DNA from: a virus
Taxonomy: Duplodnaviria > Heunggongvirae > Uroviricota > Caudoviricetes
Strand: one strand, 5' to 3'
Virus record (IMG/VR): IMGVR_UViG_2563366877_000002
DNA length: 51,594 nt
Within the stretch, counting starts at the first letter, position 1; each line of letters begins with the position of its first letter. Below the pieces are notes generated by a model. That model did not search any database. It was not told where the DNA came from and was given only the letters and a program-made list of their open reading frames with translations. Shown here piece after piece: positions 1 to 46,844 of the stretch. The translations under genes were made by a program, and so were the position numbers.

Positions 1-1284
1 TTACAGACTTCTGGAAGGTTGCGCAGCTCTTACAACACGCGGTTGATCTTCCGCGGCGTCTTCCAGCGCACTTAAATCACGGTCTTTCACTTCTGGCATT
101 TTCAGCGCAGAGATTAAACCAATCACTGAATATGCCATGATCATAATGGCGATCGGATACCAGGATTCCGTCATGGTGCAGAAAATACCCGCCAGGATAG
201 GACCTAAACCGGAAGCGATAAGACCACCAATTTCTTTAGAAATAGCCATCCGGGTAAAGCGGTTTTTACAGCCGAACATTTCTGCCATGGTAATATTTTC
301 CAGAGCAAATAATCCCAGCACCGCACAGTTATGAATCACAATCAGTGCAACCATAATGGTGCTCGGGGCATAGCTTTTATCTACGATGATAGAAAGCATT
401 GGCCATGCCAGCACAATCGCGGAGGTATTCATAATAATATACGGGATCCGGCGACCAATTTTATCGGATAACCAACCAAGGAACGGAATGGTCATAAAGC
501 CGAGAATCGAACTGATCATCAATGCATCTGTTGGAATTGCTTTGTTAAACAATAACGTCTGCACTAAATAGCCCGCAAGGAAAGTCTGAATTAAACCTGA
601 GTTACCCGCCTGACCAAAACGCAGCCCTGTTGCCAGCCAGAAGGATTTGCTCTGGAACATGCTACCAGCAGGTGCAGGTTTTGCTGTCGGTTGGTTGCTG
701 TCGTTAACCTTCTCAAAAACCGGGCTTTCTTTCAGATTCATACGCAACCAGATAGCAAAGACCATCACGACAACGCTCGCCAGGAACGGTATACGCCATC
801 CCCACGCCAGCAGTTCCTCTTTACTGAGAATGAAGAACATAAAGGCCCAGATTGCCGTTGCGCTTAAAGTTCCGCAGTTAGTTCCCATAGCCACAAATGA
901 GGAGATAATTCCGCGCTTACCTTTTGGCGCATATTCCGCCAGCATCGTACCGGCACCGGAAATTTCCGCACCTGCACCCAATCCCTGAATAATACGCAGC
1001 GTCACCAGCAAGATGGGGGCAAAAACACCAATCTGTGCATAGGTCGGTAACACACCAATTAAGGTGGTACAGATCCCCATCATGGTGATGGTAATAAAGA
1101 GCACTTTTTTACGCCCTATTCTGTCGCCCATTTTGCCGAAAATAAATGCTCCGACAATACGCGCCACATAACCTGCACCGTAGGTTCCCATTGCCAGAAT
1201 TAACGCCATTGCCGTTGATGATTCAGGAAAAAATATTTCATGAAACACTAACGCTGCGCCGAGCGAATATAACTGGAAATCCAT
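1..1284 (-). CDS. ydfJ: MFS transporter, metabolite:H+ symporter type (host gene at prophage edge)
   Basis: 427-aa ORF with GxxxDRxGRK loop motif (GKMGDRIGRKK) and multiple hydrophobic spans; symbol from remembered synteny next to Qin pin/ydfK, not from a search. Confidence 0.6.
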   Translation of the reverse strand: MDFQLYSLGAALVFHEIFFPESSTAMALILAMGTYGAGYVARIVGAFIFGKMGDRIGRKKVLFITITMMGICTTLIGVLPTYAQIGVFAPILLVTLRIIQGLGAGAEISGAGTMLAEYAPKGKRGIISSFVAMGTNCGTLSATAIWAFMFFILSKEELLAWGWRIPFLASVVVMVFAIWLRMNLKESPVFEKVNDSNQPTAKPAPAGSMFQSKSFWLATGLRFGQAGNSGLIQTFLAGYLVQTLLFNKAIPTDALMISSILGFMTIPFLGWLSDKIGRRIPYIIMNTSAIVLAWPMLSIIVDKSYAPSTIMVALIVIHNCAVLGLFALENITMAEMFGCKNRFTRMAISKEIGGLIASGLGPILAGIFCTMTESWYPIAIMIMAYSVIGLISALKMPEVKDRDLSALEDAAEDQPRVVRAAQPSRSL

Positions 1285-1888
1285 AATTCACAGGTGTTTT
1301 TTCCCATCCTGTGGTTTCCTTGGCGTTTTCTAGGTTTTTTCAGATAGTTGCATTTTTTAAAAAGCATCCTAAGTTCGATCTCAGTGTCTATCTGGGGCCT
1401 ATTTCTGTCCCATATATGCCCCAAAAAAAACTCCCCAACAGATAAGTAGTTTTTTCATGGATTTATGCGTAAAATCAAGAACGGCTGGAAATCATTCAAT
1501 ACTCACACTATCGAAAAATTTACCAGCCAACCGCAGCACGTTCTTGCATAAGGCGTGTCTGCGGTTTTTCAACTATTCAGATACATCACTCCCATCACAT
1601 TCATTCCTCCGCATCAAAGGCATATAGGCTATATCACCTTGATATTTTTATTTTTCAGATAAAAACTGTTATCTATGTATACTTTTAAACCCAATCCGTG
1701 TAGAGTCTCTGCATAAGATAGTTTGCAGTTGCCGCTTCAGCTTGCGCCATAAACCGCCTGATTTTTGCTGCCACCTGTTAGCATTCCTGTATACCTGAAA
1801 CGACAATGTTTATCTACGAACTTTAAGAACACCCAAGATAAAAATTGTCAACTATATCATATATAACACATTACTAATTCGAGGCTAT

Positions 1889-2002
1889 ATGAACAGCATA
1901 CTGATAATCACATCTCTCCTTATCATATTCAGCATTTTTAGTCATGCCCTAATAAAATTAGGGATTGGCATATCCAATAACCCAGACAAAACCGATGTAT
2001 AA
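1889..2002 (+). CDS. candidate 37-aa small hydrophobic protein ([37 protein letters not shown])
   Basis: ATG preceded by GAGG about 5 nt upstream; one predicted transmembrane span; not in ORF track (below 60 aa); hand translated. Confidence 0.3.
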
Positions 2003-2070
2003 GTCAACATATCCTGAATCAGACATACAATATCGCAATGAAAATCAATAATATTTTAAGGAATATCTTC

Positions 2071-2304
2071 ATGAAATCAAAAGACACCCTAAAGTGGTTC
2101 CCTGCGCAGCTTCCTGAAGTAAGAATTATCCTAGGGGATGCTGTAGTGGAAGTAGCAAAACAGGGAAGACCTATCAATACCAGAACATTGCTTGATTACA
2201 TTGAAGGAAACATAAAGAAAAAATCATGGCTGGATAACAAAGAATTATTACAAACAGCGATATCAGTTCTTAAAGACAACCAAAATTTAAATGGTAAAAT
2301 GTAA
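2071..2304 (+). CDS. ydfK: YdfK/YnaE-like small protein (cold-shock-associated prophage gene)
   Basis: 77 aa from internal Met of track ORF 2038-2304; sits immediately upstream of pin as ydfK does in Qin; identity from memory. Confidence 0.5.
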   Translation: MKSKDTLKWFPAQLPEVRIILGDAVVEVAKQGRPINTRTLLDYIEGNIKKKSWLDNKELLQTAISVLKDNQNLNGKM

Positions 2305-3308: not shown

Positions 3309-3884
3309 CTACGGCAGTGCTGGCCATTCAATATCCTGTGCAGTTGACGTATCAACACGGTTCAGCAATACCCGATACTTTTTCCATGCTTCCAGCAACG
3401 AGATTTCTTCCTCCGTTGCAATTTCCAGATCTGCAGCATCCTGAAGCGGCGCAATATGCTCACTGGCTACCTGCATCAGGCTGTTTTTTGTTTCTTCCGC
3501 CTCCCGGATCCGGAACAGTTTTTCTGCTTCCGTATCCTTCACCCAGGCTGTGCCGTTCCACTTCTGATATTCCCCTCCCGGCGATAACCAGGTAACATTT
3601 TCCGGTAACGGACCGAGTTCAGAAATAAATAACGCGTCGCCGGAAGCCACGTCATAAACCGTTTTACCCCGATGTTCTTCAACGAGATGCCACGATGCCT
3701 CATCACTGTTGAAAACAGCCACGAAGCCTGCCGGAATATCTGGCGGTGCAATATCGATACTGTTTGCTGGCAGACCTGTATGAGGCGGAATATATGCGTC
3801 ACCTTCACCAATAAATTCATTAGTTCCGGCCAGCAGATTATAAATTTTTATGGTCCGTGGTTGTTCACTCATTCTGAATGCCAT
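3309..3884 (-). CDS. tfa: tail fiber assembly protein Tfa
   Basis: 191 aa, lambda Tfa-like; start overlaps stf stop (ATGA). Confidence 0.85.
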
Positions 3885-7721: not shown

Positions 7722-12300
<4,579 letters not shown>

Positions 12301-29372: not shown

Positions 29373-29718
29373 GATGGTGTTAACTCCAGTCATCGCTGGC
29401 ACTACCACTGCAGGTTCAGAGTTAAAAAAAACTATGATTTTTTTCATGATGTTACCGTAGTATGTGAGTATCCATCGAATAGATACCAAGCAAAAAAGCT
29501 CCCGAAGGAGCCTTCATTTTCACTTTTTTAAATCCAACGACAGACGGCTGGCATTTAAGTATTGTGAAATATTATCAAATGTAATCATCATTGATTTACA
29601 AAAGATACATTTTGCCCCGAAAGGATTCATGTCAGAAACATCAAAAGATGATGTTCTATACTGGGAACCATGACAACACGGGCATCTAAAGTGAATATGG
29701 TTTGTAATATTGTCTACC

Positions 29719-29931
29719 TCAAAGCGCCACTACATGAACAGCGGCAGGACCTTTAGGTCCGTTCTCAATACCAAATTCAACTTCCTGATTCTCAGTTAAT
29801 GTTTTGAAATCGTTGCTCTGAATTGCTGAGAAATGGACAAACACATCTTTGCTGCCATCTTTCGGCGTGATGAAACCAAAACCTTTTTCAGGGTTAAACC
29901 ATTTCACTAAACCAGTCATTTTGTTAGACAT
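29719..29931 (-). CDS. cspI: cold shock protein, CspA family
   Basis: 70 aa [34 protein letters not shown] with RNP1/RNP2 motifs. Confidence 0.85.
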
Positions 29932-30294
29932 AATTATTACCTTTTGAAGAAATTAGCCCTTGGGCAGAATGGTCCGAAAAAAAATATCAGAGAGAAAAAC
30001 CAACAAGGAAATCTCAAGAGGTACAAATAATAAAATTATAACAATGACTGCTTCAGATAAATTTGTAACAAACCAGAACACCATTAACGCATGATTAACC
30101 ACCCATAGCAAGGATTACTTTTGTAAAGAAAAACACAGCAATGAAAGAATAGCTTTATTTATTAATAATAACGTGTCATTCTGATTAAGACCTTTTATCT
30201 TACCCTTAAGATTTCAGGAATTTTGGCTCATGGAAGAGTCCTTTTTATTTAAATTTTACATTCCGCGATGTAAATGTTCCGATTTAATATTACC

Positions 30295-32321: not shown

Positions 32322-32602
32322 GAGATTGTGGTGCTTTTTGTGGGAGTCATCCACTTACGCACTTTGTTTTGCCATGCCAGCAGTTAGCTTCTGCTGTAAA
32401 ACTATTCATGCAGCAAACCTGCACTTCACCACAATGGTTAGCATACTTTTCCTGATTAAGATTTTGCCAAATATGCTAGCCATTGTTTCATGTATTGGAC
32501 CTCCTTACTTTTTATTAAAGAGATCCAATATTCACTACTCTGTCCGTATCTCTACTCAGGCATCAGCCTTCTTCGTTATCGTATACAGACGAGCGATGAA
32601 TT

Positions 32603-32818
32603 TTAATCAGTAATGATGACATTTGCTGCTGCAGGACCTTTAGCACCACTCTCTATAGAGAAGGTAACCTTTTGACCTTCAAATAAGGTTCGATAATTAT
32701 CATTCTGAATCGCAGAAAAATGCACAAACACATCTTTACTACCATCAACAGGAGAAATAAAGCCGAAACCTTTATCAGCGTTAAACCATTTTACTAAACC
32801 AGTCATTTTATTTGACAT
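32603..32818 (-). CDS. cspB: cold shock protein, CspA family
   Basis: 71 aa [53 protein letters not shown]. Confidence 0.85.
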
Positions 32819-33118
32819 TCTACATTCCTTAACTTGAGCCTTTCGGCATAAATGGTTTGCATAACAGAAACGACTTCGTACTTAATTGGAGAGACTCAAA
32901 GAAGGAATAAGTGAATAACACCTGAAATGAGAACTGCTTTAGTAAACTACTTCGTATATCGTCTGTTCTTCAAACCGACGCAATCATTAACGCATAGTTG
33001 AACATATGAAGCAATGTTTATTTTAGACATCCAGCCATCTTCAACCCCATCAAAAAACTATAGCTTTCTTCAGGAACGTGTGTATAGTGCGCCAAGTTAT
33101 CAGTATTAAGGAATTTTT

Positions 33119-39032: not shown

Positions 39033-39923
39033 TCAGGCTGCCAGATCATCGTTTCCGATGGAAGCATAATAAGCTTTTTCTGCTTCTGCCGGAGGAGTAT
39101 GGCCCAGCCTTTCCAGCAATCGTCGATTGTTATACCAGTCCACCCACGTGAGTGTGGCCAGTTCCACTTCTGCACGGTTTTTCCAGCTCTTACGGTGTAT
39201 TACCTCCGCTTTGTAAAGACCATTGATGCTCTCCGCCATCGCGTTGTCATACGAGTCGCCTGTACTTCCTGTTGATGCCAGTAATCCGGCTTCCTTAAGC
39301 CGCTGTGTGTAGGCCAGCGATACATACTGAGAACCTTTATCACTGTGATGGACCGTGCCGGACGGTCGACGGGCCCATAACGCCTGCTCCAGTGCATCCA
39401 GCACGAATGTCGTTTCCATGGACGATGAGACCCGCCACCCCACGATGTATCCGGCAAACACATCAATGATGAACGCCACATAGACGAAGCCCCGCCATGT
39501 GCTGACGTAAGTAAAATCAGCCACCCACAGCTGGTCAGGTCGTTCTGCCACGAACTGACGGTTTACGCGGTCGCCTGCGGCAACGGCTTTCCGGCTGATG
39601 GTCGTACGGACCTTTTTACCCCGGAGAACACCGGCAAGTCCCATAACCGCCATGAGACGTGCCACAGTGCATCTGGCCACTCTGATACCTTCCCGTAACA
39701 ACTGACGCCAGACTTTACGCACACCGTATACCTTGTGATTTTCATCGTATACGCGCTGTATCTCTTTCTTCAGCCAGTCATCGCGCTGCGCACGGGCACT
39801 GCGTTTATCCGGATGATGTCGCTGTTGCTGACAGTGGTAATACGTTGACGGGGCAATATGCAGTTCGCTGCATAGCGGTCCGACCCCGTACTGCTCACGC
39901 AGCTTATCCAGCAGTGGCATCAT
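39033..39923 (-). CDS. IS629-type transposase OrfB (rve)
   Basis: 296 aa DDE catalytic core. Confidence 0.85.
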
Positions 39924-40246
39924 TTTTTCCAGAGGCGGTCGAACTCCGCCTTCGCAAAATAAGCGGAAGCCTGGCGAAGGATATCGTTACTGCGGCGCAG
40001 TTCACGATTTTCACGTTCCAGCTCTTTCAGACGCTGACGTTCAGCGGTGGTGAGCCCTCCATCACCGCCCCCGGTATCCCGCTCATGCTGGCGAACCCAG
40101 ACACGCAGAGTCTCCGGCGTACAGCCAATCTTTGGAGCAATGGAACAAATTGTCGCCCATTGTGAGTCATATTCGCTCTGACTTTCCAGAACCATACGGA
40201 CTGCCCGTTGACGGACTTCGGGGGAAAAACGAGTATTTTTAGTCAT
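39920..40246 (-). CDS. IS629-type transposase OrfA (HTH)
   Basis: 108 aa [35 protein letters not shown]. Confidence 0.85.
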
Positions 40247-41092: not shown

Positions 41093-41426
41093 GAAAAATC
41101 CCCCAGAGAATTGTCTGGGGACATTTTAGAATGGTTCAAAGGGGACATTACAGCTTGGTGTTAACAATAGCCTGCTTCTCCTTGCCTTTCGGCACGTAAG
41201 AGGCTAACCTACATGTGTCTGGCATGAAATTGGCCTCAGATTAATGTTAAGCGTCTTGCAGGACGCGTAATGTTAACTGGGGCTTTTCTCTACCTGCCGT
41301 TGGTGTTCGTGCCCGAGGCAGATAGCCTCAAGCACCCGCAGTCATTCTACTTAACTAAGATTTCCCCGCAAACCGTTTTTGTCCAGCACAGTAAATATCC
41401 AACTAAACCAATGGAGTTCGCTGTAT

Positions 41427-46786: not shown

Positions 46787-46844
46787 TTTTCTGGTGACGT
46801 TTGGCGGTATCAGTTTTACTCCGTGACTGCTCTGCCGCCCTTTT
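46787..46844 (+). ncRNA. dicF: DicF small RNA (ftsZ-targeting sRNA) with its intrinsic terminator
   Basis: TTTCTGGTGACGTTTGGCGGTATCAGTTTTACTCCGTGACTGCTCTGCCGCCCTTTTT matches remembered DicF; terminal GC hairpin plus T-run. Confidence 0.8.

Follow-up and report, generated by a model that had tools for sequence, protein, structure and literature searches.

The window analysed here, a stretch of 51,594 nucleotides from a virus of the Caudoviricetes (Duplodnaviria; Heunggongvirae; Uroviricota; IMG/VR record IMGVR_UViG_2563366877_000002), carries at one end a truncated MFS transporter gene, ydfJ' (1-1284, minus strand), and, 604 nt away from it, an ATG-to-TAA frame of 37 codons plus stop that is evident both in the sequence and in its list of open reading frames (ORFs). 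This frame is the small-protein gene ynfT. The cold shock gene ydfK follows 68 nt downstream (Table 1); next come genes for an invertase of the Pin family, for tail-fibre assembly, and for a tail fibre (1009 codons). Much of the original prediction, which was made from the sequence alone, describes this arrangement well: the peptide has a strongly hydrophobic helix followed by a polar tail, its gene lies between the transporter gene and ydfK, and a GAGG precedes the ATG, at a spacing of 4 nt where about 5 nt had been given. The GAGG is retained in the Salmonella-type copy of ynfT, and two divergent loci (L216 and L217) have a purine-rich GGAG or AAGGA at the equivalent place. The single membrane helix proposed for the peptide fits the sequence (the best 18-residue Kyte-Doolittle window has a mean of 2.41, and homologues reach 2.69-2.73); one transmembrane helix in YnfT is thus plausible, as a prediction. 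The length of the ORF is by itself not significant: the ~800 nt that separate ydfJ' from ydfK contain five ORFs of at least 37 aa.

Table 1. Features of the ynfT-ydfK locus, and RNA elements elsewhere in the window
Feature	Position	Strand	Basis
Terminator-like hairpin followed by U5	1529..1571	+	dG -20.7 kcal/mol, z -4.55
Conserved upstream block (TAAAAATTGTCAA...), left edge of the cassette, presumed promoter/5' UTR	1836..1888	+	homology to 118970_sal3 begins
Shine-Dalgarno (SD) GAGG	1881..1884	+	4 nt upstream of the ynfT ATG
ynfT CDS, YnaM/YnfT family small protein	1889..2002	+	ORF, RefSeq CDS, Pfam/NCBIfam, selection
ynfT-ydfK spacer, 68 nt, with ydfK SD and predicted Fur-box cluster	2003..2070	+	sequence; PMC2189734
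ydfK, 77 aa, cold shock protein YdfK, Pfam PF27475 YnaE family	2071..2304	+	annotation
IS009, overlapping tfaQ	3343-3541	-	Rfam gathering level
isrC	8781-8903	-	Rfam gathering level
cspA-type thermoregulator leader (first of two)	29692-30077	-	Rfam gathering level
cspA-type thermoregulator leader (second of two)	32587-32979	-	Rfam gathering level
ALIL frameshift pseudoknot	39849-39965	-	Rfam gathering level
DicF	46789-46840	+	Rfam gathering level

Two other statements of the original prediction have to be revised. The ORF had been called unannotated, whereas RefSeq holds a CDS at identical coordinates, ynfT, described as 'YnaM/YnfT family protein': in NZ_CP010129.1 (L001) the CDS of WP_120795384.1 occupies positions 3604-3717, which correspond to 1889-2002 of the window on the same strand and in the same frame. 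It had also been placed at the prophage-host junction, but ynfT belongs to a mobile prophage module and not to host junction DNA, since the copies in the Rac and Qin prophages of Escherichia coli K-12 are nearly identical to the window in DNA sequence from about position 1524 onward through pin, with flanking pinQ/tfaQ alike. In K-12 MG1655, ynfT (b4748, 1632890-1633003) is part of the Qin prophage, where it likewise sits between ydfJ' and ydfK, and an identical paralogue, ynaM (b4744), is found beside ynaE in Rac; the peptide encoded in the window is 100% identical to both. The prophage of the window is itself lambdoid and of the Qin type, and more complete than K-12 Qin, with a tail-fibre ORF of 1009 aa against a 963-nt stfQ CDS in K-12.

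YnfT is therefore already known, as a named gene with published detection of its protein and with families in Pfam (PF23676, 'Protein YnaM-like', 96.2 bits against a cutoff of 27, residues 1-37 of 37), NCBIfam (NF041477, 63.9 bits against a cutoff of 35), and PHROG (phrog_35882, 72.7 bits). When the intergenic region was compared by megablast with complete E. coli genomes, ynfT was annotated under every match listed; several GenBank phage records leave it unannotated. A short query consisting of the ORF and its immediate flanks located ynfT in 2,807 of 5,426 complete E. coli genomes, at 3,401 places, and carrier genomes often have two or three copies. The YnaM/YnfT family is nevertheless narrow: an exhaustive HMMER search of 1.84 billion representative proteins gave 4 clusters, all from Enterobacteriaceae and from few genera. 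Relatives were sought by HMMER, by a degenerate DNA pattern for the tail, and by searches anchored on YdfK; searches at the DNA level were more useful than tblastn against phages, in which only the polar tail of YnfT aligned because the low-complexity filter masks the helix.

The association of ynfT with ydfK is close. Of the 205 loci collected, 192 show both genes, and in every one of these they are direct neighbours with the same orientation, separated by a spacer of 62-75 nt; at the 11 loci that appear to hold ydfK only, the contig ends exactly at ydfK. They need not be an obligate pair, since two loci (L169, 8514-8621, and L189, 10341-10454) hold an intact Salmonella-type ynfT, together with its conserved upstream block but without ydfK, directly abutting a tail-fibre assembly gene. 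Just upstream of ynfT, L189 also has a 729-aa ORF with AEAKAK repeats and then an overlapping 90-aa ORF.

The limits of the shared segment are seen in Salmonella phage 118970_sal3, which has a different tail module (with baseplate wedge genes) and whose homology to the window is confined to ~1836-2308, a stretch that begins ~50 nt before ynfT and takes in the stop codon of ydfK. Upstream of 1836 the sequence is unrelated, and the length of the small ORF is unchanged in the phage. The ynfT module also occurs in the phage genomes mEp460, Tritos, 2H10, Turner, Kati and others, and divergent loci (L005, L216 and L217) likewise have a ynfT-family gene upstream of, and co-oriented with, ydfK. In several unrelated backbones, the neighbours are tail-fibre, tail-assembly, or invertase genes, or the end of the phage. 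Judged from these sequence comparisons, ynfT-ydfK is a compact mobile two-gene accessory cassette of ~470 bp that has moved between unrelated phage backbones.

Further from the window, YdfK homologues have other companions. Those of 61-64% identity (L206-L213 and L219-L221, about 2170-2737 in each) lack ynfT, and upstream of most of them there is a divergently oriented small gene for a YnfU-like zinc-ribbon protein; a gene of ~2860 aa resembling GH94 glucan synthases was noticed downstream of the distant homologues, which come from Enterobacter and E. coli where a source name is given. In L222 (8-474), a Cys-rich 68-aa ORF stands co-oriented 26 nt upstream of the YdfK homologue. Two loci (L214, 2305-2424, and L215, 688-807) carry a hydrophobic 39-aa ORF (MNFPGWIAIVLMIAFAGAGIVALVKIASQVSNNNDEKEP) and, 76 nt further downstream, the gene of a YdfK homologue with 60% identity; the small ORF resembles ynfT in position and architecture and has the motif AL(I/V)K...(I/V)SNNxD. 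This ORF has no Pfam YnaM match and was not counted as a member of the family; it is possibly a very distant homologue, or else an analogue. Hits in a contig scan with YdfK were almost confined to Escherichia and Shigella; beyond these came MAG contigs that are probably contaminants and two divergent hits, L016 and L018. Four assemblies labelled Caldithrix, Alistipes, Draconibacterium, and Chryseobacterium (L007, L009, L012 and L015) contain a YdfK CDS 99-100% identical to that of the window, most likely as a result of E. coli contamination of the bins or assemblies.

The original prediction turned on whether the reading frame of the small ORF is conserved in homologous regions, and all the intact homologous loci that were found preserve it, among them loci reached without bias through ydfK (with YdfK 67-88% identical). 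Between the E. coli and Salmonella types of ynfT, the frame, length, SD, and stop are all retained at 21-25% nucleotide divergence. In this comparison, the annotated frame has a dN/dS of 0.08 and differences at codon positions 1:2:3 of 4:4:15, whereas the other five frames either have an omega of about 1-4 or are interrupted by stops, apart from the one antisense frame with shared third positions, where omega is 0.3-0.45 and stops occur as well. When 28 random substitutions were simulated, an ORF of ynfT length stayed intact in only 16% of cases, and the 10 residue changes observed compare with 18.2 +/- 1.9 in the simulations, of which 0 of 20,000 gave a number as low. Alleles of the E. coli type differ by 11 synonymous and 2 non-synonymous changes (expected synonymous fraction 0.22, P=3e-6); for codons 1-24 only, which lie outside the tail search pattern and are therefore free of ascertainment bias, the numbers are 8 and 2 (P=1.5e-4). 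These tests rest on five allele types, a small diversity that follows from the narrowness of the family.

Contigs with YdfK homologues, which were collected without reference to ynfT, extend the comparison: L216 (YdfK 67% identical) and L217 and L218 (72%) have an intact 39-codon ORF 27-32 nt upstream, and the two peptide sequences encoded there both pass the Pfam YnaM model, with 66.5 and 61 bits. For distant pairs we used pN/pS, because pS climbs to about 1.0, so close to saturation that a JC-corrected dN/dS is meaningless; the values for ynfT (0.15-0.24) are close to those for ydfK in the same comparisons (0.13-0.22). The codon-substitution analysis that the original prediction had called for thus returned a conserved frame under purifying selection, as strong as that acting on the accepted gene ydfK. 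The most conserved part of YnfT is K/R23 together with the tail GIGISNNPD(K/R)TD, the 12-residue tail being invariant; the helix (about residues 4-22) is less constrained than the tail and tolerates conservative changes. Disrupted copies of ynfT were found only in L016 and L018, which are decayed remnants with ydfK frameshifted too, and because both genes have decayed jointly, these loci are uninformative on ynfT alone.

Published experiments on K-12 agree with a translated gene. VanOrsdel et al. (2018; PMC6001520) printed the identical 37-aa sequence for the ynaE/ttcC (ynaM) and ydfJ/ydfK loci and marked both as positive in a tetracycline ribosome-profiling screen; their study used chromosomal SPA tagging and immunoblotting, and YnaM and YnfQ are named among the proteins identified (PMC6001520). 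Names have drifted since: the ydfJ/ydfK copy was 'ynfQ' in that paper and is ynfT in RefSeq and in the y-ome paper (PMC11551758), where ynfQ is now a separate Qin gene. YnaM-SPA expressed from its native locus reached levels above most newly found small proteins in ordinary growth (Weaver et al., bioRxiv 10.1101/511675). In the same work, an initiation peak for ynaM was absent with retapamulin or Onc112, possibly, in our reading, because reads from two identical copies are non-unique. An RNA-seq table lists ynfT as up 5.7-fold (adjusted p 0.067) with ydfK up 5.3-fold, and with cspB, cspG, cspI, deaD, rhlE, and ymcE among the genes rising in the same table (PMC13058169); the pattern resembles cold shock, and gives a hint compatible with co-regulation of ynfT and ydfK. 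Our literature search found no paper that assigns YnfT/YnaM a function or tests its toxicity.

The region upstream of ynfT contains a terminator-like hairpin (Table 1) more stable than any of 200 shuffled sequences, ~320 nt upstream of the gene, where the homology to Rac and Qin begins. A simple terminator scan overlooked it, probably because of a bulge in the stem. The hairpin would insulate ynfT from upstream transcription, so the gene is probably transcribed from a promoter of its own within 1572-1888. Of this interval, the Salmonella-type cassette shares just the final ~50 nt, and this conserved block is the presumed site of promoter function. A promoter scan gave 7 promoter-like sites where 6.0 were expected, and upstream of ynfT it showed no -35/-10 pair that was both conserved and convincing. 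In the circularised phage, the hairpin would lie just beyond attP and downstream of int, which is the position of tI/sib in lambda. An information-theory scan (PMC2189734) predicted a 17.1-bit cluster of Fur sites at +8 relative to the earlier annotated start of ydfK/ynaE; by our conversion, the centre of the cluster falls at about 2046 of the window (~2038-2058), inside the spacer between ynfT and ydfK, and part of the cluster sequence (AATATTTTAAGGAA) is conserved in the Salmonella-type cassette.

For the partner gene, an AlphaFold2 model of YdfK (pLDDT 78, pTM 0.67) depicts a small protein made of helices, and the PDB entry that it matches best is 2oxl_A, YmgB/AriR of E. coli (TM 0.68/0.83, rmsd 1.8 A over 59 columns). 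Foldseek gives this match a probability of 1.00 but E=0.22, and small helical bundles match easily. A weak match to the YcgZ HMM reached 15.9 bits against a cutoff of 80, and an alignment profile of YdfK compared with PDB sequences gave nothing significant. The model is suggestive of YdfK belonging to an AriR/YcgZ-like fold of small regulators. The ycgZ-ymgAB genes are induced at low temperature, as is reported for ydfK, and the products of the ycgZ-ymgA-ariR (ymgB) operon are low-temperature connectors; the operon has no YnfT-like membrane peptide.

Taken together, these observations make it highly probable that ynfT is a genuine translated small-protein gene within the ynfT-ydfK cassette and neither a toxin nor a mere leader; most likely its product is a single-pass membrane accessory protein with a functional tie to YdfK. 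The original prediction had named a membrane regulator among its options, and a small single-helix membrane protein fits the sequence. As to how it would act, we tentatively propose that YnfT, in the manner of other small membrane proteins of bacteria, inserts in the inner membrane and binds a larger membrane protein through its helix and tail, a possibility that we hold somewhat short of probable. The protein would span the inner membrane of the lysogen once, its conserved K/R23 and tail would contact the partner membrane protein, and it would act with or parallel to YdfK as a cold-responsive module of benefit to the lysogen. Under the positive-inside rule, K/R23 beside the helix would place the C-terminus in the cytoplasm, yet the tail is net acidic. 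AcrZ, MgrB, MgtS and others are characterised single-pass small membrane proteins of E. coli that modulate larger membrane proteins; YnfT shares with them its size class, a single hydrophobic helix, and detectability from the chromosome, with no sequence relationship, and differs from them in being prophage-borne and confined to a few enterobacterial genera.

Of the alternatives, the first is a role in superinfection exclusion or anti-phage defence, in which YnfT in the inner membrane of the lysogen would block DNA entry or another step of infection. Positions of 'moron' genes near the tail-fibre or attachment-site end of lambdoid phages often hold exclusion genes, and several unrelated phage backbones do have ynfT at the end of the prophage, next to genes for tail fibres, tail assembly, and invertases; the single hydrophobic helix, expression in lysogens without induction, and the retention of ynfT alone beside tfa in L169 and L189 would also suit such a role. 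Since, however, the tight linkage to a cytoplasmic cold-shock protein would be left unexplained, and YnfT has neither a PADLOC match nor similarity to any described exclusion protein, we regard exclusion as rather unlikely.

Translation of ynfT might, alternatively, merely control ydfK, as a leader peptide or upstream ORF whose product is itself functionless. ynfT does lie on the same strand as ydfK, 27-75 nt upstream of it in 192 loci, and the joint induction of the two genes in one RNA-seq data set (PMC13058169), as well as the predicted Fur site and the ydfK SD in the spacer, are compatible with it. The peptide is, on the other hand, constrained as strongly as YdfK and ends in an invariant tail, which is unexpected for most leaders; it is intact where ydfK is missing, the tagged protein accumulates stably, and no attenuator-like structure was seen in the region (z -0.87). 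A leader function without a functional peptide is for these reasons improbable in our estimation.

The original prediction had also raised a type I toxin, that is, a membrane-damaging hydrophobic peptide whose translation is repressed by a small RNA, either antisense or encoded close by. YnfT is small, hydrophobic, and prophage-borne, as are the peptides of Hok/Sok and other type I systems; there is a very weak match to PepG1 (E 0.055), and two paired hexamers resembling a promoter (2080-2053, minus strand) might give rise to an antisense transcript. The PepG1 match, the only one to a toxin family, has 13.1 bits, however, far below the cutoff of 70, PADLOC returned no match, and the promoter-like sites of the region are at chance level. 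A permissive Rfam scan of 1200-2700 (E<=1) detected no antitoxin RNA, its matches being a sub-threshold CssrB upstream (24.4 against 76 bits) and a spurious microRNA. The method is able to detect such systems, since with this library at the gathering threshold the sok antitoxin RNA was found in the same window; it served as a positive control (41166-41337, minus strand, 99.8 against 59 bits) and marks an authentic type I toxin-antitoxin locus of the hok/sok kind carried by this prophage. Other RNA elements found at the gathering level are given in Table 1; among them, the ALIL pseudoknot suggests an IS3-family insertion near 38.4-40 kb.

Structure points the same way. The leaders of hok and ldr are long and folded, whereas the conserved block upstream of ynfT has only ~50 nt, and neither the ynfT leader with its ORF (z -0.87) nor the antisense strand (z -0.78) folds better than shuffled sequences. 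Constraint is stronger on the polar tail than on the helix, and during normal growth the native locus yields readily detectable protein (bioRxiv 10.1101/511675). Unlike Hok/Sok, then, ynfT is natively expressed and comes with no antitoxin RNA match, structured leader, or family match; the toxin suggestion finds no support here, and a type I toxin is very unlikely on what the sequence offers. Finally, a chance ORF without coding function in AT-rich intergenic DNA, the remaining option of the original prediction, for which the number of ORFs of this length nearby and the start-codon peak missing from two initiation-profiling data sets (bioRxiv 10.1101/511675) might speak, is refuted by conservation and detection together, the frame being intact in independently reached divergent loci at a dN/dS of ~0.08 with far fewer amino-acid changes than random and a strong synonymous excess, the family curated in Pfam and NCBIfam, and the protein seen by immunoblot (PMC6001520).

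Returning to YnfT as an accessory protein tied to YdfK, a more speculative version of this reading, which we think doubtful, is that YnfT, by way of its invariant GIGISNNPD(K/R)TD tail, recruits or cooperates with an AriR/YmgB-like cytoplasmic YdfK at the inner membrane, reprogramming in the lysogen an envelope sensor of the host such as the Rcs phosphorelay. If this were true, ynfT-ydfK would amount to a membrane-anchored 'connector' system carried by phages, and the YnfU-like zinc-ribbon peptides beside other YdfK homologues would suggest that small-protein partners are interchangeable. More generally, ynfT is carried by about half of complete E. coli genomes and is among the many small proteins of this species that are so far without a function; what is added here is that it is constrained as strongly as ydfK, that its tail is the most conserved part, that it appears to move within a cassette of ~470 bp, that a type I toxin is unlikely, and that its companion YdfK may have an AriR-like fold.
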